46,742 bases of DNA from a virus (Duplodnaviria; Caudoviricetes). The position numbers were made by a program, and so were the translations under genes. The DNA lies in IMG/VR virus record IMGVR_UViG_3300037706_000012, positions 1 to 46,742 of that record; one strand, written 5' to 3'. Within the stretch, counting starts at the first letter, position 1. The number at the start of each line of letters is the position of its first letter. The notes under the pieces were generated by a model. It was not told the DNA's origin. It saw only the letters and a list, made by a program, of their open reading frames with translations, and ran no database searches. This document shows, piece by piece, positions 2,065 to 46,642 of the stretch.

Positions 2065-2631
2065 ATGGCATCCACCCCCAGCGTCACCAAGGTGGTCACG
2101 GGCAAGGTTCGTCTCAGCTACACGCACGTGTTCGAGCCGTACAGCCAGGACGGAGACGCGGCCGACGCCAAGTACTCCACGGTCCTGCTGGTCCCGAAGT
2201 CGGACAAGGCCACCATCCGCAAGCTGCGCGCCGCTCAGGAGGCCGCACTGGAGGCCGGCAAGACCTCTCGGTTCAACGGGTCGATCCCCAAGTCCTGGCA
2301 GGACACCATCCACGACGGCGACGAGGAGGCCGACCTGGAGCGGAACCCGGAGTACGCCGGCCACCTGTTCCTCAGCGTCAGCAGCAAGACCAAGCCGGGC
2401 GTGGTGGACCAGAACGTGCAGCCCATCCTGGACAGCACCGAGGTCTACAGCGGCTGCTACGCCAGGGTGAGCATCAACGCCTTCGCGTTCAACTACAAGG
2501 GCAAGAAGGGTGTCAGCTTCGGGCTGAACCACCTCCAGAAGATCGCCGACGGCGACTTCCTGGGCGGACGGTCCAAGGCCGAGGACGACTTCGACGCTCT
2601 GGACGACGGGGACGACGACAGCCTGATCTAG
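2065..2631 (+). CDS. DUF2815-family single-stranded DNA-binding protein
   Basis: VRLSYTHVFEP, KYSTVLLVPKSD, EVYSGCYARVSIN, GVSFGLNHLQKIADG; acidic C-terminal tail. Confidence 0.9.
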   Translation: MASTPSVTKVVTGKVRLSYTHVFEPYSQDGDAADAKYSTVLLVPKSDKATIRKLRAAQEAALEAGKTSRFNGSIPKSWQDTIHDGDEEADLERNPEYAGHLFLSVSSKTKPGVVDQNVQPILDSTEVYSGCYARVSINAFAFNYKGKKGVSFGLNHLQKIADGDFLGGRSKAEDDFDALDDGDDDSLI

Positions 2632-2646
2632 TAGGCTTAGTACCCA

Positions 2647-2686
2647 GATGGCCGCTGGTGGGCCGGTTCCCCCACCAGCGGCCATC
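2647..2686 (+). terminator. 16-bp hairpin between SSB and polymerase (terminator or attenuator)
   Basis: GATGGCCGCTGGTGGG / CCCACCAGCGGCCATC perfect inverted repeat; no U tract. Confidence 0.55.
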
Positions 2687-2714
2687 GGCACATTCGGAAA
2701 GGACACCGAACCCC

Positions 2715-4610
2715 GTGACCACAGGTCTGTTCCTCGACTACGAAACTTACTCTTCGGTCGATCTCCGCAAGTACGGCGCGTACCCGTACGTAGAGTCGCC
2801 CGACTTCAAGCCGCTCATGTGCGCCTGGTGGCTGGGCGACGCCGCTGACACGTTCCTGGTGCCACCGGAGGTGCGAGTAGCCGGACAGGAGCAGATCCTG
2901 GACCAGATAGGTGACCTGCTGGACGACCCGCACGTCATCAAGATCGCGCAGAACGCTCAGTTCGAGCGGCTGGTCAGCAGTCTCATCCTGGACTACCCGC
3001 CAGGGGAGTTCATCGACCCGGTGCAGTACCACGACACGGCAGCTCTGGCCGCGCTCAACGGGTACCCCCGCAACCTGGAGAAGTTAGCCCGTGCGCTGGG
3101 TGGCGAGCAGAAGGACACCGCCGGCACCCGCCTCATCAACCTGTTCTGCAAGCCACAGCGGGTGTTCAACTACGAGCGTGCCTACCTCCCTGAAGAGAAG
3201 CCTGAGGACTGGGCGGCGTTCGTGGAGTACTGCCGCCAGGACGTAGTCACCCTGATCGACGTGGACCTGGCCCTCGGTGACTGGCCCACCATCTATGAAC
3301 ACCAGGTTTTCCTGACGGACCAGCGCATCAACGACCGGGGCATCCGCGTGGACACCGACATGGCCAGTGCGGCGGTCACGGCGTTCGAGGAGAACACCGC
3401 GACAGCGCTCGCTGAGATGGAGCGCATCACCCATCTGGACAACCCCAACAGCCGGGACCAGCTACTCGGGTGGTTGCGGGGCCACAGGGATGTGCCCGAC
3501 CTGACGAAGGACACGGTGGAGCAGCTCCTCACCGACCCCGATCTTCCTGCCAAGGTGCGGCGGGTGCTGGAGCTCCGGCAGGAGACGGCCCTGGTCGCGG
3601 CCAAGAAGTACAAGACGGCTTCCGCGTCGGCGACGCACGGCGGACGGCTGCGCGGACAGTTCTTCTACCACGGGGCTCACACGGGTCGCTGGTCCGGCCG
3701 GGGCGTGCAGCTCCACAACCTCACCCGCCACCAGCTCAAGAAGGACGGCGAGTGGGACAGGGTTGGCGAGATGGCTGCCATCCTGGACCTGAAGCTGGGT
3801 AACGGGGCCGACGCCGACACGCTCAAGAGCCTGGTCCGGGCGGTGCTGGTGGGTCCGTTCACGGTGGTGGACTACGCGGCCATCGAAGCTCGTGTGCTGG
3901 CGTGGCTGGCCGACGAGCTGTGGGCCTTGCAGGCGTTCCGTGACGGGCGCGACATCTACGTGGAGACCGCCACCCGCATGTCCACCGGGAAGCAGCAGTT
4001 CACTAGGCGCGACGGCAAGATCGCTGTGCTGGCGCTGGGGTACAACGGGAGCGTCGGGTCGCTCCAGGCCATGGGAGCCCAGGGAACCGATCAGGATCTC
4101 CAGATGATCGTGGACCAGTGGCGCGCCACCAACCAACGCATCGTGAGCATGTGGCAGCAGATGGACCGTGCGTTCCGCCGTGGCGGCCCAGTAGGTGACG
4201 GAGGCCACCTCCGGGTGGACAAGCGCGGTAACGACCGTCATCTGGTGCTGCCCAGTGGTCGGGCGATCGTGTACCACGACGTGCGCATGCGAAAGATCGT
4301 GACCAAGTTCGGTACCGAGAAGGTGGTACCCACGTTCATCGACCCGGTGAAGGGCATCCGGGTACCCACCTACGGCGGCCGGCTCACGGAGAACGTGACA
4401 CAGGCCGTGGCCAGAGACGTCCTTGCTGACGCCCTAGTTCGCCTGGACGCCCGGGGGCTGCGCCCAGTAGGCCACGTGCATGACGAGGCCCTGTGCGAGA
4501 CACGGGACCTGACCGCCGTGACGGCTGCCATGACCACTCAGCCGGACTGGGCCCCGGACCTACCGATCGACGTGGCCGGCTTCGTAACGGAGAGGTACAG
4601 GAAAGACTGA
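2715..4610 (+). CDS. Family A DNA polymerase with 3'-5' exonuclease
   Basis: DYETYS (ExoI), YCRQDV (ExoIII), HTGRWSG, DYAAIEARVL (motif A), RRDGKIAVLALGY (B), VHDE (C); GTG 2715 after AAAGGA. Confidence 0.93.
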   Translation: MTTGLFLDYETYSSVDLRKYGAYPYVESPDFKPLMCAWWLGDAADTFLVPPEVRVAGQEQILDQIGDLLDDPHVIKIAQNAQFERLVSSLILDYPPGEFIDPVQYHDTAALAALNGYPRNLEKLARALGGEQKDTAGTRLINLFCKPQRVFNYERAYLPEEKPEDWAAFVEYCRQDVVTLIDVDLALGDWPTIYEHQVFLTDQRINDRGIRVDTDMASAAVTAFEENTATALAEMERITHLDNPNSRDQLLGWLRGHRDVPDLTKDTVEQLLTDPDLPAKVRRVLELRQETALVAAKKYKTASASATHGGRLRGQFFYHGAHTGRWSGRGVQLHNLTRHQLKKDGEWDRVGEMAAILDLKLGNGADADTLKSLVRAVLVGPFTVVDYAAIEARVLAWLADELWALQAFRDGRDIYVETATRMSTGKQQFTRRDGKIAVLALGYNGSVGSLQAMGAQGTDQDLQMIVDQWRATNQRIVSMWQQMDRAFRRGGPVGDGGHLRVDKRGNDRHLVLPSGRAIVYHDVRMRKIVTKFGTEKVVPTFIDPVKGIRVPTYGGRLTENVTQAVARDVLADALVRLDARGLRPVGHVHDEALCETRDLTAVTAAMTTQPDWAPDLPIDVAGFVTERYRKD

Positions 4611-5479
4611 TGGGCTATAACATGGAGTCGATGTACTTCTCGTTCGTGCGGGAGCGGCATTCCGTCTGGGAGAAGCGCCAAGCCGGCCAGCCTGGTCCGT
4701 GGACCAACGACCCGTGGGTGGCTGCCAAGAAGTTCACGAACGTCTTCCGAATCCTGGACCCGGGCACCCAGTACGCGTTGACGTTGGGCGCGCTGGACGA
4801 GAGGGACATCCTGCTTCGGCTGTTCCTGTACCGCCACACCGGGCGCATTGACGCCTGGGAGTACCTGGACGCCCTGCCCACAGCAGTCAACCTGCCGGAC
4901 GTGCTGGCCCAGTGGCAGGACTACCGGGCACTTGGAGGCAAGATCTTCACGAGCGCCTACGTGGTGGCCCCGGGCCCCGGGACAGACAAGATGGAATCCG
5001 TGATCGACCTCACACGACGCATGTTCACCCCGGGCAGCCCGGACGACATCATACCGGCGTGGCAGCGTGCCGAGTCCCCCAGAGATCGGTTCGCGGCACT
5101 GCACCGGAACCACGGCGTGGGCGACTTCATGTCCATGCAGATCCTGACCGACTGGGGATACCACTTCTCGTCCGGCGACGAGAACGCCTTCGTGGTGGCG
5201 GGGCCAGGATCGCGCAAGGGTGCCGCCGAGCTGGACCGGGGCTCCCCGGAGGACACCATCCGCTGGGCCCGGGACGAGTGGTGGCTCCGGGCGGACTGCC
5301 CCGTGATAGACCTGCCCGACGGGCGCCAGCACCCGCCCAGCCTGATGGACGTGCAGAACACCTTCTGTGAGTTCAGCAAGTACCTGCGATACATCCGCAA
5401 GGGTCCAGTACCCACCAAACCGTACGCGCCGGCGCACCCGGGTCCCCAGCCCAAGCCCCGGCTACCGGCCCACTGGTAG
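4610..5479 (+). CDS. aGPT-Pplase1 / 5-hmdU DNA kinase helical-domain-like protein
   Basis: FVRERHSVWEKRQAGQPGPWTNDP..KFTNVFRILD; GDFMSMQILTDW; VVAGPGSRKG; LMDVQNTFCEFSKY; TGATG coupling to polymerase. Confidence 0.8.
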   Translation: MGYNMESMYFSFVRERHSVWEKRQAGQPGPWTNDPWVAAKKFTNVFRILDPGTQYALTLGALDERDILLRLFLYRHTGRIDAWEYLDALPTAVNLPDVLAQWQDYRALGGKIFTSAYVVAPGPGTDKMESVIDLTRRMFTPGSPDDIIPAWQRAESPRDRFAALHRNHGVGDFMSMQILTDWGYHFSSGDENAFVVAGPGSRKGAAELDRGSPEDTIRWARDEWWLRADCPVIDLPDGRQHPPSLMDVQNTFCEFSKYLRYIRKGPVPTKPYAPAHPGPQPKPRLPAHW

Positions 5480-5493
5480 GACAGATAGTAGTT

Positions 5494-5522
5494 CTGACCC
5501 GACCATCAGCGAGAAGTAGGCT
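5494..5522 (+). promoter_or_regulatory. Putative sigma-A-like promoter for the thymidylate-synthase-like gene
   Basis: CTGACC-17 nt-TAGGCT in the intergenic gap. Confidence 0.4.
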
Positions 5523-5569
5523 GATGGTCGGCACACAGAAAACCGTCAACAACGATAGGAACCGATGTC

Positions 5570-7261
5570 ATGATCCACATCGTACGAGCGGGCGCCACGG
5601 AGGCGCTCCCGGTGATGCTCCAGCACCTCCTCAGGGACGGAGACGAGGTGGGCAGCCGCCAGGGTGAGCGAACCGTCGAGGTTCTATACCCGCGCATCAC
5701 GCTGACCAGGCCGTGGCAGCGCGAGGTTCTGAGCCCCGGGCGCAAGGCCAGCATCACGGCACAGATCGCGGAGACCATGTGGGTCCTGGCCGGGCGGAAC
5801 GACGTGGAGTGGTTGGGCCACTACCTGCCGCGCGCCAAAGAGTTCAGCGATGACGGCCAGACCTGGCGGTCCGGCTACGGGCCGCGTCTCCGTGGGTGGT
5901 CGGCCGCCGACGGGAAAACTCAGATCGACCAGCTCGCCGAAGTGGTCAACCTGCTGCGGGCCGACCACGGAACTCGGCGCGCGGTCATCAACCTGTGGGA
6001 CCCGTCCGTGGACAGCACGCCGGGTAAGGACGTGGCTTGCACCAACTGGCTCCACTTCCTGGGCCGGGACGGATACCTGAACCTGCACGTGGCGACCCGA
6101 TCCAACGACGCCATATGGGGCTGGTCCGGCATCAACGCGTTCCAGTGGAGCGCACTGCTGGAGATCGTGGCCGGCATGACCGGCATGAAGATGGGCAAGA
6201 TCCACTACAGCATCTCGTCCCTGCACATCTACGAGAAGCACTGGAACCGCGCACGTGACATCGTCACGGACTGCAAGGCGCCGTCGTTCTTCGACAAGCT
6301 GGAGGACAGCCCCAGGTTCAGCGTCGAGGGCCGTACGATCGGAGTTCTCGACGGTCTGATCGACGAGTGGTTCCGCATCGAAGCTGGTATCCGTACCGGC
6401 AAGGCCGGCGAGGACTCCATCCGGGCCTTCCCCGAACCGATGATGCGCTCATGGCTGCGGGTCATCGCCTGGTACTGGACACGCCGTGTGAGCAACCTGG
6501 ATCCGCTGGTCGGAACGCGGCTGCACGCGGCAGTGCTGGCCAGCCACGAGTACCAGACCACGCGGTACGGCTCCGTCCGCAAAATCAGCGTGGCCCCAGC
6601 CATCAAGAACGAGTCGGCACCCACGATGGCGGAGCTGGGAGCCGCCGTAGACGTGACAGACCACATCGTGGTGGAGCCCCAGTCCCCTTCGGAGCGGGCC
6701 AAGGCAGTCGCTCGGTTGCAGTCGATAAGTTCCATGGCCACGGAGGCACCCAAGGGCTTCGCCAGCGGGGGCCGGATACAAGACCCCTTCCTCACCTTCG
6801 TCAAGAAGCTGCACGCCGAGAAGCATTCCGTGTACGGCGACTCGTGGAAGAAGCGTGGTGAACTTCTGTCGATCCTGCCCAACATCGCCCGCAAGGTGGA
6901 CCGGCTGGGTGTAGCCGGTGCCGGCGACACGGCGGCAGACACCGTGATCGACCTTCTGGTCTACCTGGTCAAGTACCGTCTGTGGCTCACCGACCGAGGC
7001 GCTCAGGACATGAGCGGCGAACTGTACCGCCCGTTTCGTGAGACGGAGCTGGAAGGTGTTGCCCGTCTGTTCAGTTGGGTCAAGCTCGGCAAGCGACGTT
7101 CGGACCTGTGCGACCTGGACTTCGTCGTGAATCAGTTCGAGACACTGACCTCACTGGCCGAGCGGGACCCGAAGCAGGACCACCTCACCTCCCGAGCCAG
7201 CTTGGTCTCGGAGATGATCCAGCACACCTACCCGCTGGCGGAGGAGCTCTGGCTCAGATAA
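5570..7261 (+). CDS. Thymidylate synthase-like protein (probable dUMP hydroxymethylase) fused to a C-terminal Nmad1/DUF1599-like domain
   Basis: IAETMW, YGPRL, TRRAVINLWDP, DVACT (catalytic Cys), RSNDAIWG...N, SLHIYE; C-terminal KHSVYGDSWKKRG...NIARKVDRL...DTVIDLLVY. Confidence 0.82.
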   Translation: MIHIVRAGATEALPVMLQHLLRDGDEVGSRQGERTVEVLYPRITLTRPWQREVLSPGRKASITAQIAETMWVLAGRNDVEWLGHYLPRAKEFSDDGQTWRSGYGPRLRGWSAADGKTQIDQLAEVVNLLRADHGTRRAVINLWDPSVDSTPGKDVACTNWLHFLGRDGYLNLHVATRSNDAIWGWSGINAFQWSALLEIVAGMTGMKMGKIHYSISSLHIYEKHWNRARDIVTDCKAPSFFDKLEDSPRFSVEGRTIGVLDGLIDEWFRIEAGIRTGKAGEDSIRAFPEPMMRSWLRVIAWYWTRRVSNLDPLVGTRLHAAVLASHEYQTTRYGSVRKISVAPAIKNESAPTMAELGAAVDVTDHIVVEPQSPSERAKAVARLQSISSMATEAPKGFASGGRIQDPFLTFVKKLHAEKHSVYGDSWKKRGELLSILPNIARKVDRLGVAGAGDTAADTVIDLLVYLVKYRLWLTDRGAQDMSGELYRPFRETELEGVARLFSWVKLGKRRSDLCDLDFVVNQFETLTSLAERDPKQDHLTSRASLVSEMIQHTYPLAEELWLR

Positions 7262-7360
7262 CCCAGTTTATCTGGAGACTTGCGACCCCCAGAAGGTAGG
7301 GGTACTGTTCTTCTTGTCTGGTAAGGCGCCAGGCAAACCTCATGGAGAGGAAGTAGCATC
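7255..7360 (+). promoter_or_regulatory. Conserved promoter cassette C
   Basis: CAGATAA-cccagt-TTATCTG; TTGCGA (7280-85)-17 nt-TACTGT (7303-08) followed by TCTTCTTGTC as in copies A and B. Confidence 0.7.
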
Positions 7361-7882
7361 ATGGCTGCACCCACCGACTACGACGACTGCATGAAGTCCG
7401 TCATAACCCGGGGCCACTGTTCCGTTCACGGTGGACGGATGGTCGATCAGCAGGGCACCTGCCAGACTGTGACCGTCCTCGCGGACGTGCGCGCCGAGCG
7501 GGCTCGCCAGTACGCCAGGCACGGCAGCAACAGCACCCTCTCGGACGGCACGGGCCCCGAGGTGCCGTGGATGGGCAACGTGGCGGACTTCTACCAGTCC
7601 AGGCTCGCGGCTGTGCGCCGGTTTCCCGGTGCCGGCGAGATCGAGACCCACCTCCGCAACGACTACGAGGCGCACGAGGCCCGCACGGGCAAGCCCACAT
7701 GGATGCACCTGGTGCGTGAGGAGGTCGCCGAGGTCTTCGCCGAGAACGACCCCCAGCGGCTCCGTGCCGAACTGATCCAGGTCGCAGCCCTGGCGGTGTC
7801 CTGGGTGGAGAAGCTGGACGCCAGACAGACCCCGAGCGGCATCCGTCCGGGCAGCCGCAAGTTCGCAGGGGAGCGTGCGTGA
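7361..7882 (+). CDS. MazG-like (all-alpha NTP pyrophosphatase) protein
   Basis: VRAERARQ..RHG; WMHLVREEVAEV...LRAELIQVAALAVSWVEKLD. Confidence 0.72.
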   Translation: MAAPTDYDDCMKSVITRGHCSVHGGRMVDQQGTCQTVTVLADVRAERARQYARHGSNSTLSDGTGPEVPWMGNVADFYQSRLAAVRRFPGAGEIETHLRNDYEAHEARTGKPTWMHLVREEVAEVFAENDPQRLRAELIQVAALAVSWVEKLDARQTPSGIRPGSRKFAGERA

Positions 7883-8608: not shown

Positions 8609-8617
8609 GAGAAACAC

Positions 8618-10223: not shown

Positions 10224-10228
10224 TGGGG

Positions 10229-10277: not shown

Positions 10278-10283
10278 TGTCTG

Positions 10284-11487: not shown

Positions 11488-11499
11488 GGTTGGTTCCTC

Positions 11500-20701: not shown

Positions 20702-20793
20702 TTTATCTGGGGATTTGTGTTCTGGGCCGGGATGGGGTACTGTTCTTCTTGTCGGGCAGGGCGCTCGGTGACAGCCCAAAGGAGGGCACCATG
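20702..20793 (+). promoter_or_regulatory. Conserved promoter cassette B driving the counter-oriented minigene cassette
   Basis: TTTATCTGGGGATTTGTGTTCT identical to copy A; TTGTGT (20715-20)-17 nt-TACTGT (20738-43); AAGGAGGGCACCATG. Confidence 0.8.
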
Positions 20794-20979
20794 TTCAAGA
20801 CACCGAAGCAGTTGGCCTGGGACCACTACCTGCGCGCCGTCCTCCACGCGCGGTCCATCATGGACCGATCCAGCGCAGCCTACCTACATGCGGTGCAGGT
20901 GAAGGACCAGGCGTACCAGGCGTACCAGGCGTACCAGGCGTACCAGGCGTACCAGGCTGAGAAAAACGAGACTGTCTGA
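20791..20979 (+). CDS. Hypothetical protein with (QAY)5 repeat
   Basis: Strong RBS; in-frame 9-bp tandem repeat. Confidence 0.7.
   Translation: MFKTPKQLAWDHYLRAVLHARSIMDRSSAAYLHAVQVKDQAYQAYQAYQAYQAYQAEKNETV
20906..20957 (+). repeat. 9-bp tandem repeat ACCAGGCGT x5 plus a partial unit
   Basis: Read directly from sequence. Confidence 0.95.
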
Positions 20980-21057
20980 CTGGTCCACTCTGGGGCTACC
21001 GTAGGTAGTGTCAGGGTGTGCAAGGCAGAAGGAACCTACTAGGCCAAGGAGGCCGTC

Positions 21058-21162
21058 GTGCGCAAGACACTGAAGCAGATCTGGGAGACCATCCTCACTC
21101 TCGCCATCGGTACGGCGATCACGTGGGGCATGTGGGTCCTCTGGCCTCCAGTACTCCCGTGA
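21058..21162 (+). CDS. Small membrane protein (34 aa)
   Basis: AAGGAGG RBS, GTG start; MRKTLKQIWETILTLAIGTAITWGMWVLWPPVLP. Confidence 0.65.
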   Translation: MRKTLKQIWETILTLAIGTAITWGMWVLWPPVLP

Positions 21163-21174
21163 CGGGGGCTCGCC

Positions 21175-21285
21175 ATGACCACTCGGGACACGCACAAGTA
21201 CGTCTGGGAGCTGGTGCTGCTGGTCCTAGCTGGTGGCGCGGCTGGGGTCGGGGCGACAGCGATCCTACTGACCCCAGGTATCTGA
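21175..21285 (+). CDS. Small membrane protein (36 aa)
   Basis: MTTRDTHKYVWELVLLVLAGGAAGVGATAILLTPGI; TGATG coupling. Confidence 0.6.
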   Translation: MTTRDTHKYVWELVLLVLAGGAAGVGATAILLTPGI

Positions 21286-21428
21286 TGACCGGGAACTTCG
21301 GCTGGTGCCTGGGCCCCACCTTCCACCACGACAGGTGCCCCAAGACGAGTCCCTCGGGGCTCCGCTGCACCTGCAAGTGCCACCTGACCAAGGAAGAGGT
21401 CGACAAGATGCTGGGGGAGCTGATCTAG
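21285..21428 (+). CDS. Small Cys/His-rich protein (47 aa)
   Basis: FGWCL...HHDRC...CTCKCH; ends GELI. Confidence 0.65.
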   Translation: MTGNFGWCLGPTFHHDRCPKTSPSGLRCTCKCHLTKEEVDKMLGELI

Positions 21429-21590
21429 GTGCCGGGCGTTTACGAAGAGGAGCACTTCGACATCCACCCGCTGGACGATCGTCACTGCACGTGCCTGTGC
21501 ATGAAGTGCTACAGCCGACTGAACACAGCGCTCCCGACGGGCGTCCTGTGTATCTGCGAGGAGTGCCCCTGCGAGGGAACCCACGACTGA
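21429..21590 (+). CDS. Small Cys-rich (metallothionein-like) protein (53 aa)
   Basis: HCTCLCMKC...LCICEECPC; GGAG upstream; ends just before the terminator. Confidence 0.6.
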   Translation: MPGVYEEEHFDIHPLDDRHCTCLCMKCYSRLNTALPTGVLCICEECPCEGTHD

Positions 21591-21597
21591 GAACGAC

Positions 21598-21630
21598 AGA
21601 GGTCCCCACCGATAACCGGTGGGGACCTCT
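21598..21630. terminator. Hairpin terminator between the cassette and the convergent tail chaperone ORF
   Basis: 14-bp perfect stem AGAGGTCCCCACCG / CGGTGGGGACCTCT; related in sequence to the 10229 hairpin. Confidence 0.8.
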
Positions 21631-21636
21631 TCTGCG

Positions 21637-22089
21637 TCATTCTCTGGTGGGCAGGCCGTCCTCAACCTCGTCCAGGGTGGCCTCGCCCCGACGGGTCGGT
21701 GGGAGAGCCTCCGCCGGGCGCTCAGCGTCTTGCACCCGGGTATTCACCACCTGGAGCCGCACGCCAGGCTCCGCGTCCTTCTTGTTCTTGCGGTACTCCT
21801 CCATGGCGGCTACGGCGTAGTCCACCTCGTCGTCCTTGATCTCGTACCAGCCGTCCATCTCCGGGTCGGTGGCCTGTCTCAACGGGATTCCGAACTCGTT
21901 GATGGAGTCCTCGTACAGGCTCAGCCCCTCCGCAAGACCGCGAGACTTGCGGGACCAAGGTGTACCCGGGGGCTTCGTCCCCAGGTATACCTCCGGCTCC
22001 ACGCTCCACGACCGAGCTGTGCGGAGAGCTCGAACTACTCCGGGGCTACGCTCCAGCCCCAGGGCGATGTGGGGCCACGATCGACACAC
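21637..22089 (-). CDS. Tail assembly chaperone, second ORF (gpT-like; start uncertain, probably reached by frameshift)
   Basis: Overlaps the end of the upstream chaperone; ALRTARSWSVEPEVYLG...PWS. Confidence 0.7.
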   Translation of the reverse strand: MCRSWPHIALGLERSPGVVRALRTARSWSVEPEVYLGTKPPGTPWSRKSRGLAEGLSLYEDSINEFGIPLRQATDPEMDGWYEIKDDEVDYAVAAMEEYRKNKKDAEPGVRLQVVNTRVQDAERPAEALPPTRRGEATLDEVEDGLPTRE

Positions 22090-33838: not shown

Positions 33839-34414
33839 ATGAGCAGAGTATTTATCCTCAAGGGTGGTCCACGAGACGGCGACCAGAAGGTCCACACGGC
33901 CAGGGGACCGGTCCCTCGGTACCTGGACAAGACGCTGGCCACCGTGGTCCAGCTATCTCGCCGGCACCAGTCCGGCGCGTACCGCCGTGAGTCCTACGAC
34001 CGGGAGAGCGGCACGGTGGTGTTCCGGTGGTGTACCGGTCGCGCGCTGCTGATAGACCCGGGCCCCCTCAACGCGGTACGGAACCAACGAGCGCTGGACA
34101 TGGCGCTGAAGTTCTCCGGAGGCGACACGGACGCGACCATCACGGTTCACTCCCCCCCGGGGCTGTGGCTGGAGATCGACCGGGAGGTCTCCTGCTACGT
34201 GGCCATCCGTGGAGACTCCTGCGTGCGTGTGCGCGGCGCGGCGCGCGTCAGCGCGTTCGACCGCGCCCAGGTACACGCCTACGGACAGGCAAGGGTGTCG
34301 GCCAACGACAACGCGTACGTTCGTCTGCACGACGACGCCACGGCCCGGAGGCACGACGACGCGCAGGTCAGGACTAAGGGTCGGCACCAGAAGCTTCTCG
34401 ACGAGCTGATCTAG
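33839..34414 (+). CDS. Hypothetical protein with 8-aa beta-helix-like repeats
   Basis: VSAFDRAQ-VHAYGQAR-VSANDNAY-VRLHDDAT; TAGGCT 8 nt upstream of ATG suggests a leaderless transcript. Confidence 0.7.
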   Translation: MSRVFILKGGPRDGDQKVHTARGPVPRYLDKTLATVVQLSRRHQSGAYRRESYDRESGTVVFRWCTGRALLIDPGPLNAVRNQRALDMALKFSGGDTDATITVHSPPGLWLEIDREVSCYVAIRGDSCVRVRGAARVSAFDRAQVHAYGQARVSANDNAYVRLHDDATARRHDDAQVRTKGRHQKLLDELI

Positions 34415-37084: not shown

Positions 37085-37386
37085 TGGTACAAGCACACGA
37101 GCACCGATGGATCCTAGGTGACTGGTGCGAGATCAAGGGCTGTACCGCCACCCGGCGCCGAGACCACCTGGTGGCTGCCGAATACCTGGTCGAGGTGCTC
37201 CGCACGCCGGGCACCGACGTCCGCCTGGTCGACGGCTGGCTCTGCGACGTCAACGTGCCGCTGGTCTCGCTGGACCAGGTGGCCGAGGATCTTAACGAGC
37301 TGGCAGCGTTCGGACGAGTGACCAGCACCACACGGGACGCCGCCACCATCCGACGGGCCATCGAGGTACTGAGGGGGAGGACATGA
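37084..37386 (+). CDS. Hypothetical protein
   Basis: TGATG coupling; HEH...CEIKGC. Confidence 0.65.
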   Translation: MVQAHEHRWILGDWCEIKGCTATRRRDHLVAAEYLVEVLRTPGTDVRLVDGWLCDVNVPLVSLDQVAEDLNELAAFGRVTSTTRDAATIRRAIEVLRGRT

Positions 37387-37736
37387 CCACACAGACCCTA
37401 CGCGAGTCCGCCATCGAGGCGTACCTGGACAAGCGGGTACGCCAGGTCGGCGGGCTCACGTTCAAGATCGCGCCGACCATCAAGGGTCTTCCCGACCGCT
37501 GCGTGCTGGCGCCTCACGGGGGCATCTACCTGGTGGAGCTGAAGACCTCGGCAGGGGTCCTGTCCCCCGCTCAGATCCAGTGGCACCTGCGGGCCCGGGG
37601 CGTCGGCCACGTCATCCATGTTCTGCGGTCCAGGGAACAGGTGGAGTCGTTCGTCCGGTGGATCGTGTGGTCAGCTACGTCGGAAGCCCGCAAGAAGCCG
37701 AAGCCCACCCCTGCGGAAGACGAGGATCTGATCTGA
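37383..37736 (+). CDS. VRR-NUC domain nuclease
   Basis: RESAIE, GLPDRCVL, VELKTSAGVLSPAQ. Confidence 0.9.
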   Translation: MTTQTLRESAIEAYLDKRVRQVGGLTFKIAPTIKGLPDRCVLAPHGGIYLVELKTSAGVLSPAQIQWHLRARGVGHVIHVLRSREQVESFVRWIVWSATSEARKKPKPTPAEDEDLI

Positions 37737-38181: not shown

Positions 38182-38405
38182 CCACCCACACCTGCCGCTA
38201 CTGCGGCACCGCAGGCGACCTCCAGGAGTCCACCAGCGCGCCGGGTGTGTATGCCTGCCAGACGTGCGTCAACGTGCCCACCAAGCACTGCCACGGGTGC
38301 GGCAAGCACGTCACTCAGGTGGAGGTGGTCGTGGTCAGGTTCACGGGCCAGAGAGCCGAGCGGTGTACGCACTGCACGCACGCGCAGAAGGTGAATGGTC
38401 TGTGA
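38178..38405 (+). CDS. Zinc-finger-like protein (four CxxC)
   Basis: CRYC, CQTC, CHGC, CTHC. Confidence 0.7.
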   Translation: MTTHTCRYCGTAGDLQESTSAPGVYACQTCVNVPTKHCHGCGKHVTQVEVVVVRFTGQRAERCTHCTHAQKVNGL

Positions 38406-39508
38406 GCGAGTTCTGCCTGGACTACTTCGCCGGTGGTGGAGGTATGTCCACCGCCATGGCCCAGCTCGGACTCTCGCACATCAGCGTGGAGTCCGAGCCG
38501 GTCATGATCCAGACCTTGCGAGCCAACGGTCATCCCACCTGGCACGCCGACGTCACCAGCTCCCGGGTACGAGACCACCCGTGGCCGGCCATCTACCTGT
38601 TCCACGCCAGTCCGCCTTGCCAGTCGTTCAGCGTGTCCGGTAGGGGGGAGGGTCGTGCCCACCTGGACTCCATGGCACAGGCTCTGAGAAAGGTAGCCGA
38701 CGGAGCCTTGCCAGAAGACGCCCTGGCGTCGGTGGCAGACGACGCACTGGACAAGCGAACAGAACTCAGCCTGGAGCCGATGTTGGTTATCCAGCGGCAT
38801 CGGCCCCGCTTCATCACGCTGGAGCAAGTCCCGCCAGTACTACCTCTGTGGGAGGCGTACGCGGAGATCCTGCGCGGCTGGGGCTACAGCGCGTGGACGG
38901 GGATGCTGCACAGCGAGCAGTTCGGCGTCCCGCAGACTCGCAAGCGCGCGGTCCTGATGGCCAGCCGCGAGCGCCAGGTCTCCCCGCCGGCGCCGACGCA
39001 CAGCCGATTCCACAGCCGCTCGCCGGAGAGGCTTGACGACGGCCTTTTGCCGTGGGTCTCGATGGCTCGGGCCCTGGACTGGGGCATGACCGCACGACCG
39101 GCCATGACAGTCACTGGCGGGGGCTCGGCTACTGGTGGTGCCGAGCCTTTCGGGAACGCGGCACGTCAGACCATCCGGCGCGAGGAGGAGGAGGGCCGGT
39201 GGGTGCAGAGGTCAAACTACTCAGCGTCAGGGAAACCCGGGCAGACGGCCGAAGAGCGCGGCCGGACGGAGCGTGAGCTGGGACACCCGAGCGTCGTCAT
39301 TACCAGCAAAGGCTTCCGCTGGAAAGCCAAGAACGACGCCGTGCGCGTCACTGTCGAGGAGGCGGCTACCCTACAGACCTTCCCGGAGGGGTACGAGTTC
39401 TGTGGCAACAAGGGAGAACAGTTCCAGCAGGTGGGCAATGCTTACCCTCCAGTGATGGCACTGGCCATCCTGACAGCACTGACCTGCTCGGCTGCACCAC
39501 AGCGGTAG
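38402..39508 (+). CDS. DNA (cytosine-5)-methyltransferase
   Basis: FAGGGG (I), SPPCQSFS (IV), EQV (VI), PQTRKR (VIII), EAATLQTFP (IX), QQVGNA (X). Confidence 0.92.
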   Translation: MSEFCLDYFAGGGGMSTAMAQLGLSHISVESEPVMIQTLRANGHPTWHADVTSSRVRDHPWPAIYLFHASPPCQSFSVSGRGEGRAHLDSMAQALRKVADGALPEDALASVADDALDKRTELSLEPMLVIQRHRPRFITLEQVPPVLPLWEAYAEILRGWGYSAWTGMLHSEQFGVPQTRKRAVLMASRERQVSPPAPTHSRFHSRSPERLDDGLLPWVSMARALDWGMTARPAMTVTGGGSATGGAEPFGNAARQTIRREEEEGRWVQRSNYSASGKPGQTAEERGRTERELGHPSVVITSKGFRWKAKNDAVRVTVEEAATLQTFPEGYEFCGNKGEQFQQVGNAYPPVMALAILTALTCSAAPQR

Positions 39509-39538
39509 GATTACCCAGCTTGACCTAGCAAAGGAACC

Positions 39539-40900
39539 GTGACCCCCGTGAACCATTCTGCTCCCCCGCTGCACGACTACCAGCGCCTTGGCGTGCGGTA
39601 CCTGCACAACCACGACCGTTGTGCTCTGTTCCTGGACATGGGACTCGGCAAGACGGCCACCGTGCTCACGGCACTGGAGCCGCGCCACCTGCCGGTCCTG
39701 GTGGTGGCCCCCAAGCGGGTAGCTCAGCACGTGTGGCCGGAGGAGGCTCGTCTCTGGCGCCGGGACCTACGTCTGGTACACGCCGTGGGGACGCCGGCTC
39801 AGCGGGCGCGCATCCTCCAGTCGGATGCCGACATCATCGTCATCGGGCGTGACAACCTCCGTGACGCCATCTCGCACGCCAAGCGGTTCAAGACGTTCAT
39901 CATGGACGAGATGTCCAGCTTCAAGAACCGCCAGGCCGCGCGCTGGGCAGCAGCCCACAAGATCGCGCAGAAGGTCCCGCACGTGTGGGGGCTCACCGGT
40001 ACGCCGGCACCCAACGGACTGCTGGACCTGTGGGCCCAGATCCGCCTGCTGGACGGCGGAGAGCGGCTGGGCAAGTACATCACGCACTACCGGGGACGGT
40101 ACTTCGTGGCCGGGCGCCAGCTTTCCAACGGCGTCGTGACCGAATGGAACCTCCGCGACGGAGCGGACGCCAAGATTCACGCCCTGCTGGAGGACATCAC
40201 CCTGGCCATGAAGTCCAACGGACGGGTGGACGTGGCGGAGCCTGTGTTCAACCGCGTGCGGGTGGACCTGCCTCCCAAGGCGCGTACCGAGTACAAGCGC
40301 ATGAAGGACGACCTGGTCAACGACCTCACGCTGATCGGCGGCGAGATCCACACGGCTGCGAACGCGGCGGTCGTGACCAGCAAGCTCTCCCAGATGACGG
40401 CTGGCGCCATCCTGCACGACGACGCCGACCTCCGTGGTGGCACCTACGACGTGGTGCATCACGAGAAGGTACGAGCCGTGCGGGAGATCGTGGACGGTAA
40501 CGCCGGCCAGCCCGTGGTGGTGTTCTACTGGTTCAAGGCTGAGCTGGAGCTGCTGAAGGCGGAGTTTGGCCCGGACCTGCACACGCTGGACGAGGAAGAT
40601 GTGGTCATGGCCTGGAACGCGGGCAAGGTTCCGGTCTTGGCTCTCCACCCGCTCAGCGCCGGCCACGGACTCAACCTCCAGCACGGCGGTCATATCGCGG
40701 TGTGGACCACCTTGCCCATGATGAACCTGGAGGCGTGGCAGCAGGCCAACAAGAGGCTCGCCCGCCAGGGCCAGAAGCATCAGGTGGTGGTCCACGTCCT
40801 GGAGGTGCCACGCACCGTGGATGTGGTGCAGTGGGACCGGCTGGTGCTGAAGAAGTCTGTGCAGGACGCCCTGACCGCTCACCTGGAAAGCCCGATCTGA
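39539..40900 (+). CDS. SNF2-family DNA helicase
   Basis: LHDYQ, DMGLGKT, MDEMS, LTGTPAPNGLLDLWAQ, GHGLNLQHGG, RLARQGQ. Confidence 0.93.
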   Translation: MTPVNHSAPPLHDYQRLGVRYLHNHDRCALFLDMGLGKTATVLTALEPRHLPVLVVAPKRVAQHVWPEEARLWRRDLRLVHAVGTPAQRARILQSDADIIVIGRDNLRDAISHAKRFKTFIMDEMSSFKNRQAARWAAAHKIAQKVPHVWGLTGTPAPNGLLDLWAQIRLLDGGERLGKYITHYRGRYFVAGRQLSNGVVTEWNLRDGADAKIHALLEDITLAMKSNGRVDVAEPVFNRVRVDLPPKARTEYKRMKDDLVNDLTLIGGEIHTAANAAVVTSKLSQMTAGAILHDDADLRGGTYDVVHHEKVRAVREIVDGNAGQPVVVFYWFKAELELLKAEFGPDLHTLDEEDVVMAWNAGKVPVLALHPLSAGHGLNLQHGGHIAVWTTLPMMNLEAWQQANKRLARQGQKHQVVVHVLEVPRTVDVVQWDRLVLKKSVQDALTAHLESPI

Positions 40901-40901
40901 C

Positions 40902-41129: not shown

Positions 41130-41440
41130 GCGGCACCAGAGGGACCACCAACGGCAACGCCAGGGGCTCCGTGTACAACCGGCGCCAGCGGCGCGCGTGG
41201 CTGGTGCTGACGTACGCCAGTGACGTCCCTGGGTTCGTGCGCTGCTACCGGTGCGGGTGTCTGCTGTTCAACCCGGACAAGGCCATACCCCGTGAGGTGC
41301 TGGACAGGGCGGGAGCCGTGCGGCTGACTGTCGACCGCATCGTCCCGGGCTGCCAGGGAGGCACGTACCGCCGAGAGAACATCCGGCCGGCGTGCGGCCC
41401 GTGCAACAGCGAGACCGGAGGAGGTGTGAGATCTAGATGA
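41126..41440 (+). CDS. HNH endonuclease-like protein
   Basis: CYRC...TVDRIVPGCQGGTYRRENIRPACGPCN. Confidence 0.82.
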   Translation: MSGTRGTTNGNARGSVYNRRQRRAWLVLTYASDVPGFVRCYRCGCLLFNPDKAIPREVLDRAGAVRLTVDRIVPGCQGGTYRRENIRPACGPCNSETGGGVRSR

Positions 41441-43794
41441 GGTCCAAGTTCAATATCGTTACGGCGCCGCGACGGGACAGCCGTCACTGGAAAAATGGCA
41501 CCATCTCGTGGGACGAGATCCTGGGGTGGATGGTTGCCCCACGTACCAAGAAGGACTCCGGCAGCTATGTGCTCGGTCTGCTGGACAAGACCGAGGCCAA
41601 GCACTCCGGCAACGACAAGCCGTGCATAGGCGTCCACCGGCGCAAGCAGGCCGTGGTCAGCCGGAGCATGCTGGCGCTGGACGTGGACTCCCCCGCTGAC
41701 GACTTCCTCCTCAGCCTGGCCATGCTGGGCGTGCGCCTGGTGTGGCATACCACGCACTCCAGCCGTCCGGACAAGCCCAGGTACCGCGTCCTGATCCCGC
41801 TGGACAGGGACGTGGACCCCGGCGAGTACCAGCTCGCCGTCATGGCCGTCATGGACCGGGTGGGGGAGGAGAGCTTCGACCAGGGGTCCACACAGCCGGA
41901 GCGGTACATGTTCCGCCCGGCCGCCGAACATCCGGATTGGTTCTCGTGGGGAGAGATCCAAGGGCCCGTGGCCGAGGCGGACGGGCTCGTCTCCGCCGCG
42001 CCGGACCTGAGCACGCTGCCCGTGCCGGCGGTGCCCAAGGCGAAGCAGAGCCCCTTCGACATGCCGGGCGTGCTGGGTGCGTTCAATCGCGCCTACACCG
42101 ACCTGGACGACCTGTCCAAGGAGTACGACCTGCCGTACGTGTCTGTCGGCAGCGACCGGTGGGCCCTGGCGGGCACCGACAGCGCGGCGGGCATGGGCGC
42201 TGTGACGGATGGCCTGTGGTTCAGCCACCACGCCAACGACCCCGCCGGCGGACGAGCAGCGACAGCGTTCGATCTGGTGCGGACGCACCGGTACGGGCAC
42301 TTGGACGACGAGGCCAAGCCGGGCACACCCATCAACCGGATGCCCAGCCACCTGGAGATGCTGAAGTGCGCCCAGTCTGACGTCCGTGTGGTAATGGAGG
42401 TGGTGGGGCAAGACTTCGGTCCGGCAGCGAGTCAGGAGCTGGCAGCCAACGATGACGACGACGATCCCCAGCCGGCACCGCCCGTGGACTGGCGGTCCGG
42501 CTTGCAGATCAGCAGCAGTGGTCAGATCCGGGACACCATTGGCAACTGGGACCTCATCTCCCACCACGACTCGGTGCTCCAGTCGCTGCGGTACAACGTG
42601 TTCACGCTGGGCATGGAGTCCGACAGTGACCTGCCGTGGCGTGCGACCGACGTACACGCCGGCGGCCCTCTGTTCTCAGAGAACGACAGGCTGGCGCTGG
42701 CGGACTACATCGAGCGCACATACACCATCAGGCCGATGCGTGGCCGGATCGATAGCCTGGTCGCCGCTCAGGGAGCTGCCCGCCGGCACGACCCGGTGAA
42801 GAGCTACCTGGAGAACCTCCCGGAGTGGGACGGCCGGTCCCGCCTGGAGGAGTGCCTGCCCGGTGTGCGACCCACGGAGTACACACGGCTGGTGGCCCGC
42901 AAGTCCATGGTGGCTGCTGTCGCGCGGGTCATGGACCCCGGCGTCAAGTGGGACCACAGCCTGGTCCTGTACGGCGACGAAGGGCTCGGCAAGTCGTACT
43001 GGATCGACAAGATGGCGCAGGGCTTCACGGCTACTCTCGGAAGGGTAGACCAGAAGGACACGCTGATCGTGATGCACCGGTCGTGGATCGTGGTGGCCGA
43101 CGAGGGCCACTCCATGAAGAAGGCCGACGCCGATCAGCTCAAGGAGTTCCTGACACGCCGGCATGATGTGTTCCGCATGCCGTACGACCGCCAGGCCAAC
43201 GAGTACCCCCGCCGCAACGTGATCTGGTCCACCACCAACGACGAGATCTTCCTGCGCAGACAGCAGGGCAATCGGCGATTCCTGATCGTCCACTGCCAGG
43301 ACAAGGTCGACTTCTCTCTGCTCACGGACGAGTACATCGACCAGGTGTGGGCCGAAGCCGTGGCCGCTTACCGTGGCGGCGAGCTGCTGTTCCTGGAGGG
43401 GGAGCAAGCTGCTCTCGCGGCCAGCGAACGGGAGCGCTTCACGGAGGAGGACCACACGTCGGGCATCGCGCAGGAGTTCCTGGACATGCTGGTCCCCGCC
43501 GACTGGGACGACCTGGGGCCCTATGGACGTCAGGACTGGTACCGCGACCATCAGCAGGGCATGGCGCAAGGCGTCGTGCAGCAGGAGCGCACCTGCGCGC
43601 TACAGATCTGGACGGAAGCCCTGGGCAACGACAAGGGCCGCGCCGGCAAGGCGGACCTACGCCAGATCCACGAGACGTTGAAGGAGCTACCCGGCTGGCG
43701 CAAGCTGCCAGGCCGGCACCGGGTGCCCGGGTACGGCCCACAGCAGACGTACGAGCGGTTCGACTACAAGGCAGAACTGGAGGAGCTGATATGA
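41437..43794 (+). CDS. Primase/helicase (N-terminal primase-polymerase-like domain plus VapE SF3 helicase)
   Basis: LALDVD, HTTHSS..KPRYRVLIPL, SHHANDPA; GDEGLGKS (Walker A), DE, STTND, GNRRF. Confidence 0.9.
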   Translation: MRSKFNIVTAPRRDSRHWKNGTISWDEILGWMVAPRTKKDSGSYVLGLLDKTEAKHSGNDKPCIGVHRRKQAVVSRSMLALDVDSPADDFLLSLAMLGVRLVWHTTHSSRPDKPRYRVLIPLDRDVDPGEYQLAVMAVMDRVGEESFDQGSTQPERYMFRPAAEHPDWFSWGEIQGPVAEADGLVSAAPDLSTLPVPAVPKAKQSPFDMPGVLGAFNRAYTDLDDLSKEYDLPYVSVGSDRWALAGTDSAAGMGAVTDGLWFSHHANDPAGGRAATAFDLVRTHRYGHLDDEAKPGTPINRMPSHLEMLKCAQSDVRVVMEVVGQDFGPAASQELAANDDDDDPQPAPPVDWRSGLQISSSGQIRDTIGNWDLISHHDSVLQSLRYNVFTLGMESDSDLPWRATDVHAGGPLFSENDRLALADYIERTYTIRPMRGRIDSLVAAQGAARRHDPVKSYLENLPEWDGRSRLEECLPGVRPTEYTRLVARKSMVAAVARVMDPGVKWDHSLVLYGDEGLGKSYWIDKMAQGFTATLGRVDQKDTLIVMHRSWIVVADEGHSMKKADADQLKEFLTRRHDVFRMPYDRQANEYPRRNVIWSTTNDEIFLRRQQGNRRFLIVHCQDKVDFSLLTDEYIDQVWAEAVAAYRGGELLFLEGEQAALAASERERFTEEDHTSGIAQEFLDMLVPADWDDLGPYGRQDWYRDHQQGMAQGVVQQERTCALQIWTEALGNDKGRAGKADLRQIHETLKELPGWRKLPGRHRVPGYGPQQTYERFDYKAELEELI

Positions 43795-43934
43795 CCACGA
43801 ACAAATCCATGGACGAACTGGCCAAGCAGGTGTACGGCAACATTCGGCCGAACACGCCGGAGGAGATCGACAAGGTACGCACCCTCACGGCGGACCACAC
43901 CGACATTCAGCGGGCGCTGGGGTTCCTCCCGTGA
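43791..43934 (+). CDS. Small hypothetical protein
   Basis: GGAGGAG RBS; ATGA and GTGA overlaps. Confidence 0.65.
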   Translation: MTTNKSMDELAKQVYGNIRPNTPEEIDKVRTLTADHTDIQRALGFLP

Positions 43935-44326
43935 GCCCGCTGGAGGTGCTGTGGCAGGAGCACTCCCGTGCCGACTGTGCGCGCCGTCAGGTGGGCGCCG
44001 TGGTGCTGTGGGCAGGCCGCGTGGTGGGGCAGGGGCGCAACGCCATGCGGGACGGGGAGTCCTGCACAGGGGGCGACTGCCCCCGTGGCAAGCTGACCTA
44101 CGAGCAGCAGCCGGCGGGCGAGGGGTACTACACCACGGGCCAATGCTGGGCCATCCACGCGGAGGTGGCCGCGCTGCGCCAGGCCGGCGGCAGGGCGCTG
44201 GGTGCAGTGATGATGGTCACCGCCCAGCCGTGCCCAGGCTGCCTGCGCGACATCGAGGAAGCCGGGATCGCCGAGGTGCGCGTGGTGGACTATCCATCTG
44301 CACAGTACGCCACGGTGTACCCGTAG
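43931..44326 (+). CDS. dCMP deaminase
   Basis: C.RRQVGAVV, GRN, IHAEVAAL, VTAQPCPGC, AGI. Confidence 0.9.
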   Translation: MSPLEVLWQEHSRADCARRQVGAVVLWAGRVVGQGRNAMRDGESCTGGDCPRGKLTYEQQPAGEGYYTTGQCWAIHAEVAALRQAGGRALGAVMMVTAQPCPGCLRDIEEAGIAEVRVVDYPSAQYATVYP

Positions 44327-44392
44327 GCAGCGGTACCGTAGTACCGCTGCATCAGGCAATACGTCAACCGACACCACGAGAAAGAGACAACC

Positions 44393-44749
<357 letters not shown>

Positions 44750-44819
44750 GAGCCGCTGGTGGCGGTCGGTGACCTGTGCCCCTACCGCCACCAGCTCACC
44801 CATCTCAAGGAGAGACACC

Positions 44820-45026
44820 GTGGACGACCCCATCATCAGGGAAGCAAAGGCCGACGTGGAGGACACGATCGGCCAGGAGCTCGGCGAGCAAGTGGACGCC
44901 ATCGGTCTGGCGGAAGATATCGTGGAGAACCTGATCAAACAGGGCTTCATCATCGGCCGTCCGTACGGTGACCAGGAGCTGTTCGACGGCGACATCGTCA
45001 TGGTCCGGGTGAAGACTCGTGCCTAG
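44820..45026 (+). CDS. Hypothetical acidic protein
   Basis: AAGGAG RBS, GTG start. Confidence 0.7.
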   Translation: MDDPIIREAKADVEDTIGQELGEQVDAIGLAEDIVENLIKQGFIIGRPYGDQELFDGDIVMVRVKTRA

Positions 45027-46257
45027 TCAGCACGCCACCTTGTCGCCCAGTGCGGCCGAACGCTGGATCTCCTGCCCGGCATCCATCCGGATGGGGGAGA
45101 AGGCGAAGGTACTGCTGGGCGACAAGCATGAGGCATCCTCTCCCTACGCGGAGGAGGGCACCAAGGCTCACGCCCTGGCGGAGATCAGGGCACGGCGGCA
45201 CTTCGGCAAGATCGACGCCGACGAGGAAGCTCGTGAGTACGAGGGGTGGCGGATGGCATCCAAGTTGACGATCGACGAGATCGGCGAGATGGAGGAGCAC
45301 GTCCGGGCGTACATCGAGCTGCTCCAGCAGCGTGTGGACGCCCTGGGCGACTTCGCCATCTTCTTCGAACAGCGGATGCCGTCCGGCGTGGAGCGGTGCT
45401 GGGGCACCAGCGACTCTGTCATCGTCAGCCACGACGTGGTCGAGATCTGGGACTTCAAGTACGGCGCCGGCGTGGCGGTCAGTGCCGTGGGTAACCCACA
45501 GCTCCGCCTGTACGGGCTGGGCGCGCTGGACAAGTTCGGCGACCTGATCGCCACCACTGACCGCATCGTGCTGGGCATCTTCCAACCGCGCGTGTTCTCC
45601 AACGGAGACAACTGGGAGGCCATGTCGGCACAGACGCTCCGTGCCTGGCGTGACGACGTGGCCCGCCCGGCGGGGGAGCTGGCCCTGGGGGACGACGCAC
45701 CGTTCGGCCCCAGCGAGTCGGCCTGCCGCTGGTGCCCTGCCGCCGGCATCTGTACCGAGCGGGCCCGCGTGCTCGCCGGGGAGGACTTCGCTCTGCCGAT
45801 GGAGGACCCGGAGGTACTCACCCCCGATGAGACGGGCGACATCCTGGGCAGGCTCGGCGAGCTACGTGCCTGGGCCGACGCCGTCGAGAAGTCGGCGCTG
45901 GATCGTGCCTACTCCGGCAGTGAGCACATCCCGGGGTACAAGGTGGTCCTGAGCGGGGGCCAGCGCACCATCACTGACCCGGACCAGGCCGTTGACGTGC
46001 TGGCCGGGGAGACCGGCCGCGACCCGGAGGCGTTCACCACCCAGAAGATCAAGCCGCTGGGCGAGCTGGAGAAGATCATCAAGGCTGACCTGCCCAAGGT
46101 ACGCAACGACAAGACCAACCGGCTGCGCTCCCAGACCCTGGAGGACGTTATCCCCAGCTACCTGGGCCGCACGCCCGGCAAGCCGTCCATAGTCCCCGAG
46201 GACGATGGACGGCCGGCCATCAACCCGAATGCGCAAGCCGTGGAGGACTTTTCGTGA
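45019..46257 (+). CDS. DUF2800-family Cas4-like PD-(D/E)XK exonuclease
   Basis: HATLSPSAAERWISCPAS, AEEGTKAH, WGTSD, DFKYGAG, NPQLRLYGLGAL, IFQPR, CRWC.....C. Confidence 0.92.
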   Translation: MPSQHATLSPSAAERWISCPASIRMGEKAKVLLGDKHEASSPYAEEGTKAHALAEIRARRHFGKIDADEEAREYEGWRMASKLTIDEIGEMEEHVRAYIELLQQRVDALGDFAIFFEQRMPSGVERCWGTSDSVIVSHDVVEIWDFKYGAGVAVSAVGNPQLRLYGLGALDKFGDLIATTDRIVLGIFQPRVFSNGDNWEAMSAQTLRAWRDDVARPAGELALGDDAPFGPSESACRWCPAAGICTERARVLAGEDFALPMEDPEVLTPDETGDILGRLGELRAWADAVEKSALDRAYSGSEHIPGYKVVLSGGQRTITDPDQAVDVLAGETGRDPEAFTTQKIKPLGELEKIIKADLPKVRNDKTNRLRSQTLEDVIPSYLGRTPGKPSIVPEDDGRPAINPNAQAVEDFS

Positions 46258-46412
46258 AGCGTCTGCTCTACCGCCTGGGGCTCCGTCCCAGGCACACATC
46301 CATCTGGTACGACTACCGGCTGTCGGTGTTGTACCGGTCCATGGATCACATATCGGCACTGGGCCTACCGCCCGTGCCCAACACCGGACCACGACACTGG
46401 AGTGAAAAATGA
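46254..46412 (+). CDS. Small hypothetical protein (52 aa)
   Basis: GGAGG RBS; GTGA and ATGA overlaps with neighbours. Confidence 0.55.
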   Translation: MKRLLYRLGLRPRHTSIWYDYRLSVLYRSMDHISALGLPPVPNTGPRHWSEK

Positions 46413-46642
46413 AGGTTCAGATCGTCGAGACCATCGAGATCACGGACGAGCAGCGCTTCAAGCTGGGCGCACTGCTGTCCGAGAAGGTGAAGCCCAAGCG
46501 GCAGGCCACACGCGACGAGATCAAGAAGTTTGCGTGGCTGCGCGGGTCCTCCTGGCACGACGCGCTGGAGAGCGAGTGGGACTCCGTGTTCGGCGAAGAG
46601 GAAGAGCCTGTGGAAGAGCTGGACCTCGGGGACCTGATCTGA
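46409..46642 (+). CDS. Hypothetical protein with acidic C-terminus
   Basis: GGAG RBS; ends EELDLGDLI. Confidence 0.75.
   Translation: MKVQIVETIEITDEQRFKLGALLSEKVKPKRQATRDEIKKFAWLRGSSWHDALESEWDSVFGEEEEPVEELDLGDLI

Follow-up and report, generated by a model that had tools for sequence, protein, structure and literature searches.

An acidic, aliphatic-tipped tail motif shared by unrelated proteins of a phage genome with an Enc34-type replication module, and its variants in related phages

Sliding clamps and two proteins of phage T7 provide familiar cases of shared linear motifs. Among the tails concerned, that of T7 gp2.5 has a terminal Phe, and the C-terminus of bacterial SSB (SSB-Ct) ends Pro-Phe. 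Several described systems offer points of comparison for the tails considered here: Firstly, the acidic tails of T7 gp4 and gp2.5 bind basic patches of gp5 (PMC8472574, PMC12593628, PMC12339929). Secondly, the bacterial SSB-Ct hub combines an acidic run with a hydrophobic tip on SSB (PMC10164576). Thirdly, the gp45 motif of T4, LDFL, is carried by gp33 and gp55 (and gp43), and bacterial beta clamps have the motif QL(S/D)LF (PMC9690074). Finally, ORF6 of Enc34, a member of the DUF2815 SSB family, bears an acidic disordered tail (PMC5686142). Among the papers covered, mostly open-access main texts, no description of a tail shared between proteins of phages like the one treated here was found.

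The virus record analysed here, of which the window is the whole 46.7-kb stretch, has a GC content of 66% and is rated complete. Its nearest named relatives are Glutamicibacter phage Montesquieu and Brevibacterium phage LuckyBarnes, and its host is therefore probably an actinobacterium. The plus strand carries an Enc34-type replication module of DUF2815 SSB, family A polymerase, DUF2800 exonuclease, VapE-type primase-helicase, SNF2 helicase and VRR-NUC (Table 1), with the SSB placed in the DUF2815/Enc34 family by a Pfam PF10991 score of 217.6 bits against a cut-off of 26. The 23 minus-strand genes, by comparison with PHROGs, mostly encode virion and lysis functions.

The likeness to T7 lies in a gp2.5-type SSB and a primase-helicase that share an acidic, hydrophobic-tipped tail, with a family A polymerase in the same module. 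The tip here, however, is L[LI] rather than Phe (a terminal Phe occurs in 1 of 119 primase homologues and none of 119 SSBs); up to seven proteins are tagged per genome, internal Gly-capped repeats occur, and carriers are gained and lost. The helicase is VapE-type, unlike gp4, the polymerase has no thioredoxin-binding insertion, and the reader of the tag is a predicted one. By analogy the tag may work as the T7 tails do, yet with its different tip residue, and without a thioredoxin-binding domain in the polymerase, it falls outside that system. The SSB-Ct hub differs in another way: there one tip enters many pockets, whereas here the tip is carried by many proteins, and identity with SSB-Ct was rejected on finding a PF end in 0 of 238 homologues. 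Enc34 has an SSB of the same family, and the accessible part of its description (PMC5686142) treats the SSB tail only, whereas an EV tip was found here on 5 of the 12 Enc34 genes examined.

A short C-terminal motif common to unrelated proteins is likewise a trait of the T4 and beta-clamp systems. The earlier note on this DNA, made from the sequence alone, had invoked the clamp motif of T4 gp43/gp55/gp33 as an analogy, and this falls with the finding of LDF[LF] in 0 of 238 tails. No gp45 match was obtained when 55 proteins were compared with PHROGs and the genome lacks a beta clamp, so that T4 clamp identity was rejected, as was identity with the bacterial motif QL(S/D)LF, Gln near position -5 and terminal Phe being nearly absent from the 238 tails. 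One might still picture the tag as a host beta-clamp motif in degenerate form, by which phage enzymes are loaded on DnaN, given that [DS]-L-hydrophobic resembles the core of QL(S/D)LF, in which variation is tolerated (PMC9690074), that the phage has no clamp of its own and that so wide a range of tagged proteins would suit a tool-belt hub. We consider this improbable: Gln at -6 to -4 is present in just 5 primase tails out of 105 and in none of the 111 SSB tails, a single one of the 238 ends in Phe, and the EV and DLE tags of two Salmonella phages (see below) are not clamp-like. Taken as a whole, the motif is genuine, under selection and spread across the clade, and it departs from the T7-type tail, of which it is a variant, in its changing carriers, its recoding between lineages, its Gly-capped internal form and a protein that displays it multivalently.

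Leu-Ile endings in the window

Six of the 63 called genes (the set that remained once 8 doubtful overlapping ORFs had been dropped) end in Leu-Ile, all on the replication (plus) strand, against an expectation of 0.21; the binomial probability is ~8e-8, or 3e-5 after a 400-fold correction, and six or more gene ends with any one dipeptide arose in 88 of 100,000 simulations. These are the endings that the earlier note had singled out, at 2631 (DDSLI), 21428 (LGELI), 34414 (LDELI), 37736 (DEDLI), 43794 (LEELI) and 46642 (LGDLI), and much of what it said of them holds: well under one such ending is expected by chance, none occurs among the 23 minus-strand genes, the SNF2 helicase ends LESPI, and the Ile of the primase is encoded by ATA within an ATGA overlap at 43794. 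Its description of the tails as acidic must be narrowed by one, as the last ten residues of the 191-aa protein are net neutral. The genes for the 47-aa and 191-aa proteins have just modest coding scores. To the six can be added a seventh site missing from the original list, an internal copy EDLVG at 44570-44584, giving seven tagged proteins in this phage, six at the terminus and one within a linker.

Table 1. Positions in the window of the tagged proteins, their tails and associated replication genes
Feature	Positions	Strand	Family and remarks
T7 gp2.5-type SSB (DUF2815/Enc34 family)	2065..2631	+	Pfam PF10991, phrog_112
Second SSB motif KAEDDF, upstream of the tip	2575..2592	+	resembles exonuclease end
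SSB acidic tail ending DDSLI	tip 2614-2631	+	
Family A DNA polymerase (3'-5' exo + pol)	2715..4610	+	Pfam; untagged; candidate reader (predicted)
47-aa Cys/His protein ending MLGELI	21285..21428	+	in plus-strand cassette within virion module
191-aa repeat protein ending LLDELI	33839..34414	+	phrog_15773, unknown function
VRR-NUC-type endonuclease, Pro/Lys linker ending EDEDLI	37383..37736	+	phrog_93
SNF2 helicase ending HLESPI	39548..40900	+	Pfam PF00176
Primase-helicase (VapE-like) ending ELEELI	41437..43794	+	Pfam PF05272
Internal Gly-capped EDLVG, Pro/Glu linker of 118-aa protein (44393-44749)	44570..44584	+	
Cas4-like exonuclease (DUF2800) ending AVEDFS	45091..46257	+	Pfam PF10926; untagged in this phage
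77-aa protein, ~50-aa conserved head and acidic linker ending DLGDLI	46409..46642	+	no named family

Some neighbouring features are of separate interest. Small plus-strand genes at 20791-21640 form a cassette within the minus-strand virion module. Two of them encode Cys/His mini-proteins, a 9-bp repeat near 20908-20958 gives (YQA)n, and a hairpin lies near 21596-21640. A thymidylate-synthase-like gene, a gene for a 5-hmdU DNA kinase helical domain and a dCMP deaminase gene lie at 4610-7261 and 43931-44326; thymine hypermodification from these genes is likely, and they are so annotated in Montesquieu. A C5 methyltransferase is encoded at 38402-39508.

Conservation in relatives and selection on the protein

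The excess extends to related phages, the comparison that the earlier note had put forward as a check. In 11 related records, retrieved via SSB or primase, which builds these two proteins into the tally, LI ends number 25 among 649 called genes where 2.1 are expected, and LL ends 19 where 5.0 are expected; leaving out the SSB, L[LI] ends still account for 41 of 700 distinct proteins in 12 records. One record (G004) is mis-called, with 34 genes and the wrong strand in the replication region, and its counts are low; it was kept in the counts of LI ends, carriers, internal motifs and codons, and is absent from the strand test. In that test, 43 of 358 genes on the polymerase strand are tagged against 8 of 320 on the other (Fisher p 1.5e-6). 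Distant loci have no such excess, neither overall (9 LI ends among 2359 genes, 12.7 expected) nor in their high-GC genes (1 among 291, 1.1 expected).

Conservation in orthologues is strong for some carriers and absent for another, so that the expectation of tail conservation stands in part. For the SSB, the best 119 of 3675 homologues comprise 73 ending LI, 22 ending LL and 14 ending V[IL], which makes 95 with L[LI] and 109 with [LV][LI], and six more add one Gly. Amongst the best 119 of 270 primase-helicase homologues, 59 end LL and 36 LI (95 in all, 90 with [DE]L[LI]), and 8-23 residues of linker separate the last conserved YGxQ from the end; used as a single query, the primase-helicase found no viral relatives. 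The 77-aa family described below retains the ending in 98 of 113 homologues. For VRR-NUC, in contrast, none of the 14 close homologues and none of 5 further ones has an acidic LI end, and its tag is private to this phage. No relative of the 47-aa or 191-aa protein was present among the loci retrieved, the former had no family match in PHROGs, and no viral relative of the latter was found. The SNF2 helicase ends L/M-x-S-P-[LIM] in 7 of 10 genomes and EGVL, EGIL or EVSL in the other three, a separately conserved end that may or may not belong to the tag set.

Across the 12 records, all 11 SSBs and all 4 members of the 77-aa family carry the tag, as do 7 of 9 primases and 4 of 11 exonucleases. 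Further carriers in relatives, with functions assigned by eye from motifs, are two HTH proteins, a probable adenine methyltransferase and a MazG-like family; the portal of Montesquieu ends ELI, and a probable TerS is also tagged. The polymerase, on the other hand, is tagged in 0 of 67 distinct homologues, nearly all of which end Y-x-K-[DGE] or a close variant. Upstream in the SSB, D174 and F176 of the KAEDDF motif are invariant in 120 SSBs. The motif A-x-[DE]-[DE]-F is common to this part of the SSB tail and to the exonuclease end (46237-46254); it is conserved into Firmicutes phages, and the exonuclease of Jersey has TAEDLE at the same place.

That selection acts on protein rather than DNA, as the earlier note had argued from the rare codon in the primase, is borne out by homologues that keep the tip across varied codons and linker lengths. 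The 52 distinct LI ends use five Leu codons, three Ile codons and all three stops, and in Montesquieu alone the SSB, the primase, one unknown protein and the portal reach LI through four different codon pairs. The competing notion, that CTGATCTRR is a nucleic-acid element (DNA or RNA) marking gene ends or that chance or composition is at work, draws on the use of CTG-AT[CA] by all six copies in the window. The nine matches to CT[GC]AT[CA]TRR there are, however, the six gene ends and three minus-strand sites away from gene ends; CTGATC itself occurs 23 times against 20.7 expected and is not over-represented, contrary to a site enriched beyond gene ends. Relatives, moreover, use CTC, TTG, CTA, CTT, ATT and ATA and swap Ile for Leu, a rise in TAG stops at tagged ends is not significant (p 0.09), and composition is countered by the distant high-GC loci given above. 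An element or chance origin is thereby largely refuted, and we give it next to no credence.

Internal copies, a display protein and recoded tags

The motif is best written as acidic-[DE]-L-[LIV] with either the chain end or Gly after it, and the idea that it is strictly C-terminal has to be given up in view of internal Gly-capped copies in the 118-aa protein and in relatives of the 77-aa protein. Within proteins of the 12 records, 18 copies of [DE][DE]L[LIV]G were counted, whereas 30 shuffles gave 5.3 on average and never more than 11. In an alignment read by eye, EDLVG of the 118-aa protein is present in 10 of 20 rows from the close clade and 0 of 4 distant rows.

The 77-aa protein belongs to a family of 164 representatives, of which the 150 listed were rescored on the N-terminal 52 columns, avoiding selection by the tail, with 113 reaching at least 50 bits. 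These are the 113 of which 98 end L[LI]; 61 of them contain one to three internal copies as well, and one to four copies are displayed overall. From its alignment the family reads as a small conserved head and a length-variable acidic linker on which the tag is repeated. Gly appears to substitute for the chain end, because in 91 of 102 cases an internal [DE]L[LIV] in this family is followed by it. Comparison of the 77-aa and 118-aa families detected no kinship beyond the motif (probability 5%), and a search of the ESM Atlas with the 77-aa protein returned no usable match.

These internal copies bear on whether the tail might be a C-terminal protease degron or a stability signal for early proteins. 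Hydrophobic C-termini do serve as degrons in bacteria, and the tag favours non-virion genes; acidic ends usually stabilise, however, Gly-capped internal repeats argue against a C-terminal degron, and the most constant carrier is the SSB, a protein needed in bulk. We regard such a role as very improbable.

Outside the close clade other tips are shared in the same manner. Chi-like phage BSPM4 has EV ends on 8 of 77 proteins (0.35 expected), the SSB, primase, exonuclease and TerS among them; BcepNazgul has GL ends in 6 of 19 genes; and Jersey has DLE ends in 3 of 36 (exonuclease, primase and one small protein), with DDLE within its SSB tail. DFLx is the SSB end in many Firmicutes-type loci, mostly alongside untagged primases. 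In 92 SSB-primase pairs, 11 of 12 tailed primases match the tip class of their own SSB against a permutation mean of 2.6, a match that rests on few lineages that are not independent. Mismatches occur in Staphylococcus phi2958PVL (SSB DEDFL, primase LEDLI) and in Corynebacterium SamW (SSB DSFLD, primase FDTPF). The SSBs of Envy and Jersey end in an Arg run without an acidic tip. Acidic-x-PF ends were seen in the primases of SamW and of one further locus (L021) and in one SSB (L301); they resemble the bacterial SSB tip, which suggests that these lineages use the pockets of host SSB partners.

BSPM4 and Jersey are both Salmonella phages and yet bear different tags, which argues for a reader encoded by the phage. 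The same observation weighs on the suggestion that, by binding the tag, some other host hub (be it a chaperone or a protein of the nucleoid or membrane) places early phage proteins in the cell. The carriers are functionally mixed and include small proteins of no DNA-related family, as such a hub would allow; codes nevertheless differ inside one host genus and tips follow the phage's own SSB, and we hold a host hub to be unlikely. The lineage tag is also borne by TerS in BSPM4, Enc34 and BcepNazgul, and by a small protein encoded after the major capsid gene in BSPM4 and BcepNazgul; together with the tagged portal of Montesquieu, these make a link between replication and packaging possible.

Candidate readers of the tag

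What the data establish is that the motif exists and is conserved, that different proteins have gained and lost it, and that it has lineage-specific versions. The earlier note had gone further, proposing a common docking peptide that recruits phage proteins to one hub, whether host clamp, phage polymerase or protease adaptor. Of this, the shared and conserved protein-level peptide stands, and a putative docking role is well supported by the anatomy of the tails; the sequence tests for host and T4 clamp motifs came out negative, and a protease fits poorly. A protein-selected short linear motif that likely serves as a docking tag for one phage partner, most likely the family A polymerase, is the reading that we prefer, at about an even chance. 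The polymerase is favoured because the T7 gp4 and gp2.5 tails bind gp5, and because it is the sole core protein that is never tagged. In the mechanism envisaged, the tag would have originated as the tip of the SSB tail, and the primase-helicase, exonuclease, nucleases and accessory proteins would have gained copies borne by flexible linkers. On the partner, a basic patch would bind the acidic run and a small pocket would take up the two aliphatic residues, much as gp5 does with the T7 tails; tagged proteins could then alternate at the fork, with the multi-copy 77-aa protein acting as a bridge or a competitor.

An alignment-based model of the polymerase (pLDDT 94.6; a single-sequence model, at pLDDT 36, was unusable) has a Klenow-type fold, and speaks to the fold only, indicating no pocket. 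The thumb aligns to that of Klentaq without a large insertion, so the thioredoxin-binding insertion, which in T7 bears one of the basic patches, is absent and the tail site cannot be wholly homologous to that of T7. K371, R412, R421, R508 and R627, near-fixed in 14 polymerases of the LI clade and rare in 53 others, are a possible tail-binding surface, as leads only and confounded by ancestry. Co-variation with tip class peaks at similar levels (2-4 of 300 permutations, against 33 of 300 for SNF2) in polymerase, SSB, exonuclease and primase, and these equal signals reflect shared ancestry and single out no one reader. Against the polymerase stand the carriers in relatives (HTH proteins, a probable DNA methyltransferase, portal and probable TerS), which exceed its apparent needs, the unmatched SSB and primase tips of phi2958PVL and SamW, and the unconserved tag of VRR-NUC.

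The same tag could instead be read by another phage protein, chiefly the SSB core, so that carriers plug into SSB-coated ssDNA, or the primase-helicase. The SSB core is the main rival to the polymerase: in crystals the tail of the Enc34 SSB enters a neighbour's groove (PMC5686142), and rapid drift of the tip in each lineage would be explained if one gene encoded both tip and pocket. The last eleven residues, tip included, are however disordered in that crystal (PMC5686142), the groove, formed by the concave sheet to which DNA binding is ascribed, would be occupied on DNA, and the SSBs of Jersey and Envy end in Arg runs. For the primase-helicase there is the T7 gp2.5 tail, which is described as also touching the T7 primase-helicase. 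Readers of this kind seem to us possible but doubtful, more so than the polymerase.

More broadly, and tentatively, phages with a DUF2815-SSB/PolA module may possess private, lineage-coded addressing: one phage reader, a code that is rewritten (LI, EV, GL, DLE, DFLx), clients recruited by the gain of five residues, and dedicated multivalent scaffolds of the 77-aa family that cross-link readers into a replication-packaging compartment. A genome-wide tag recoded by lineage, if true, would mean that small phages organise their proteins by a motif code of their own, and the last residues would offer a means of assigning unknown small genes to the replication machinery. Montesquieu, LuckyBarnes, the Chi-like phages and Enc34 are cultured phages suited to this question. 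As a minor observation on the polymerase family, one homologue of 926 aa (G009:C95:31102-33882) has ~300 extra residues inserted around query position 440, which may be an intein.
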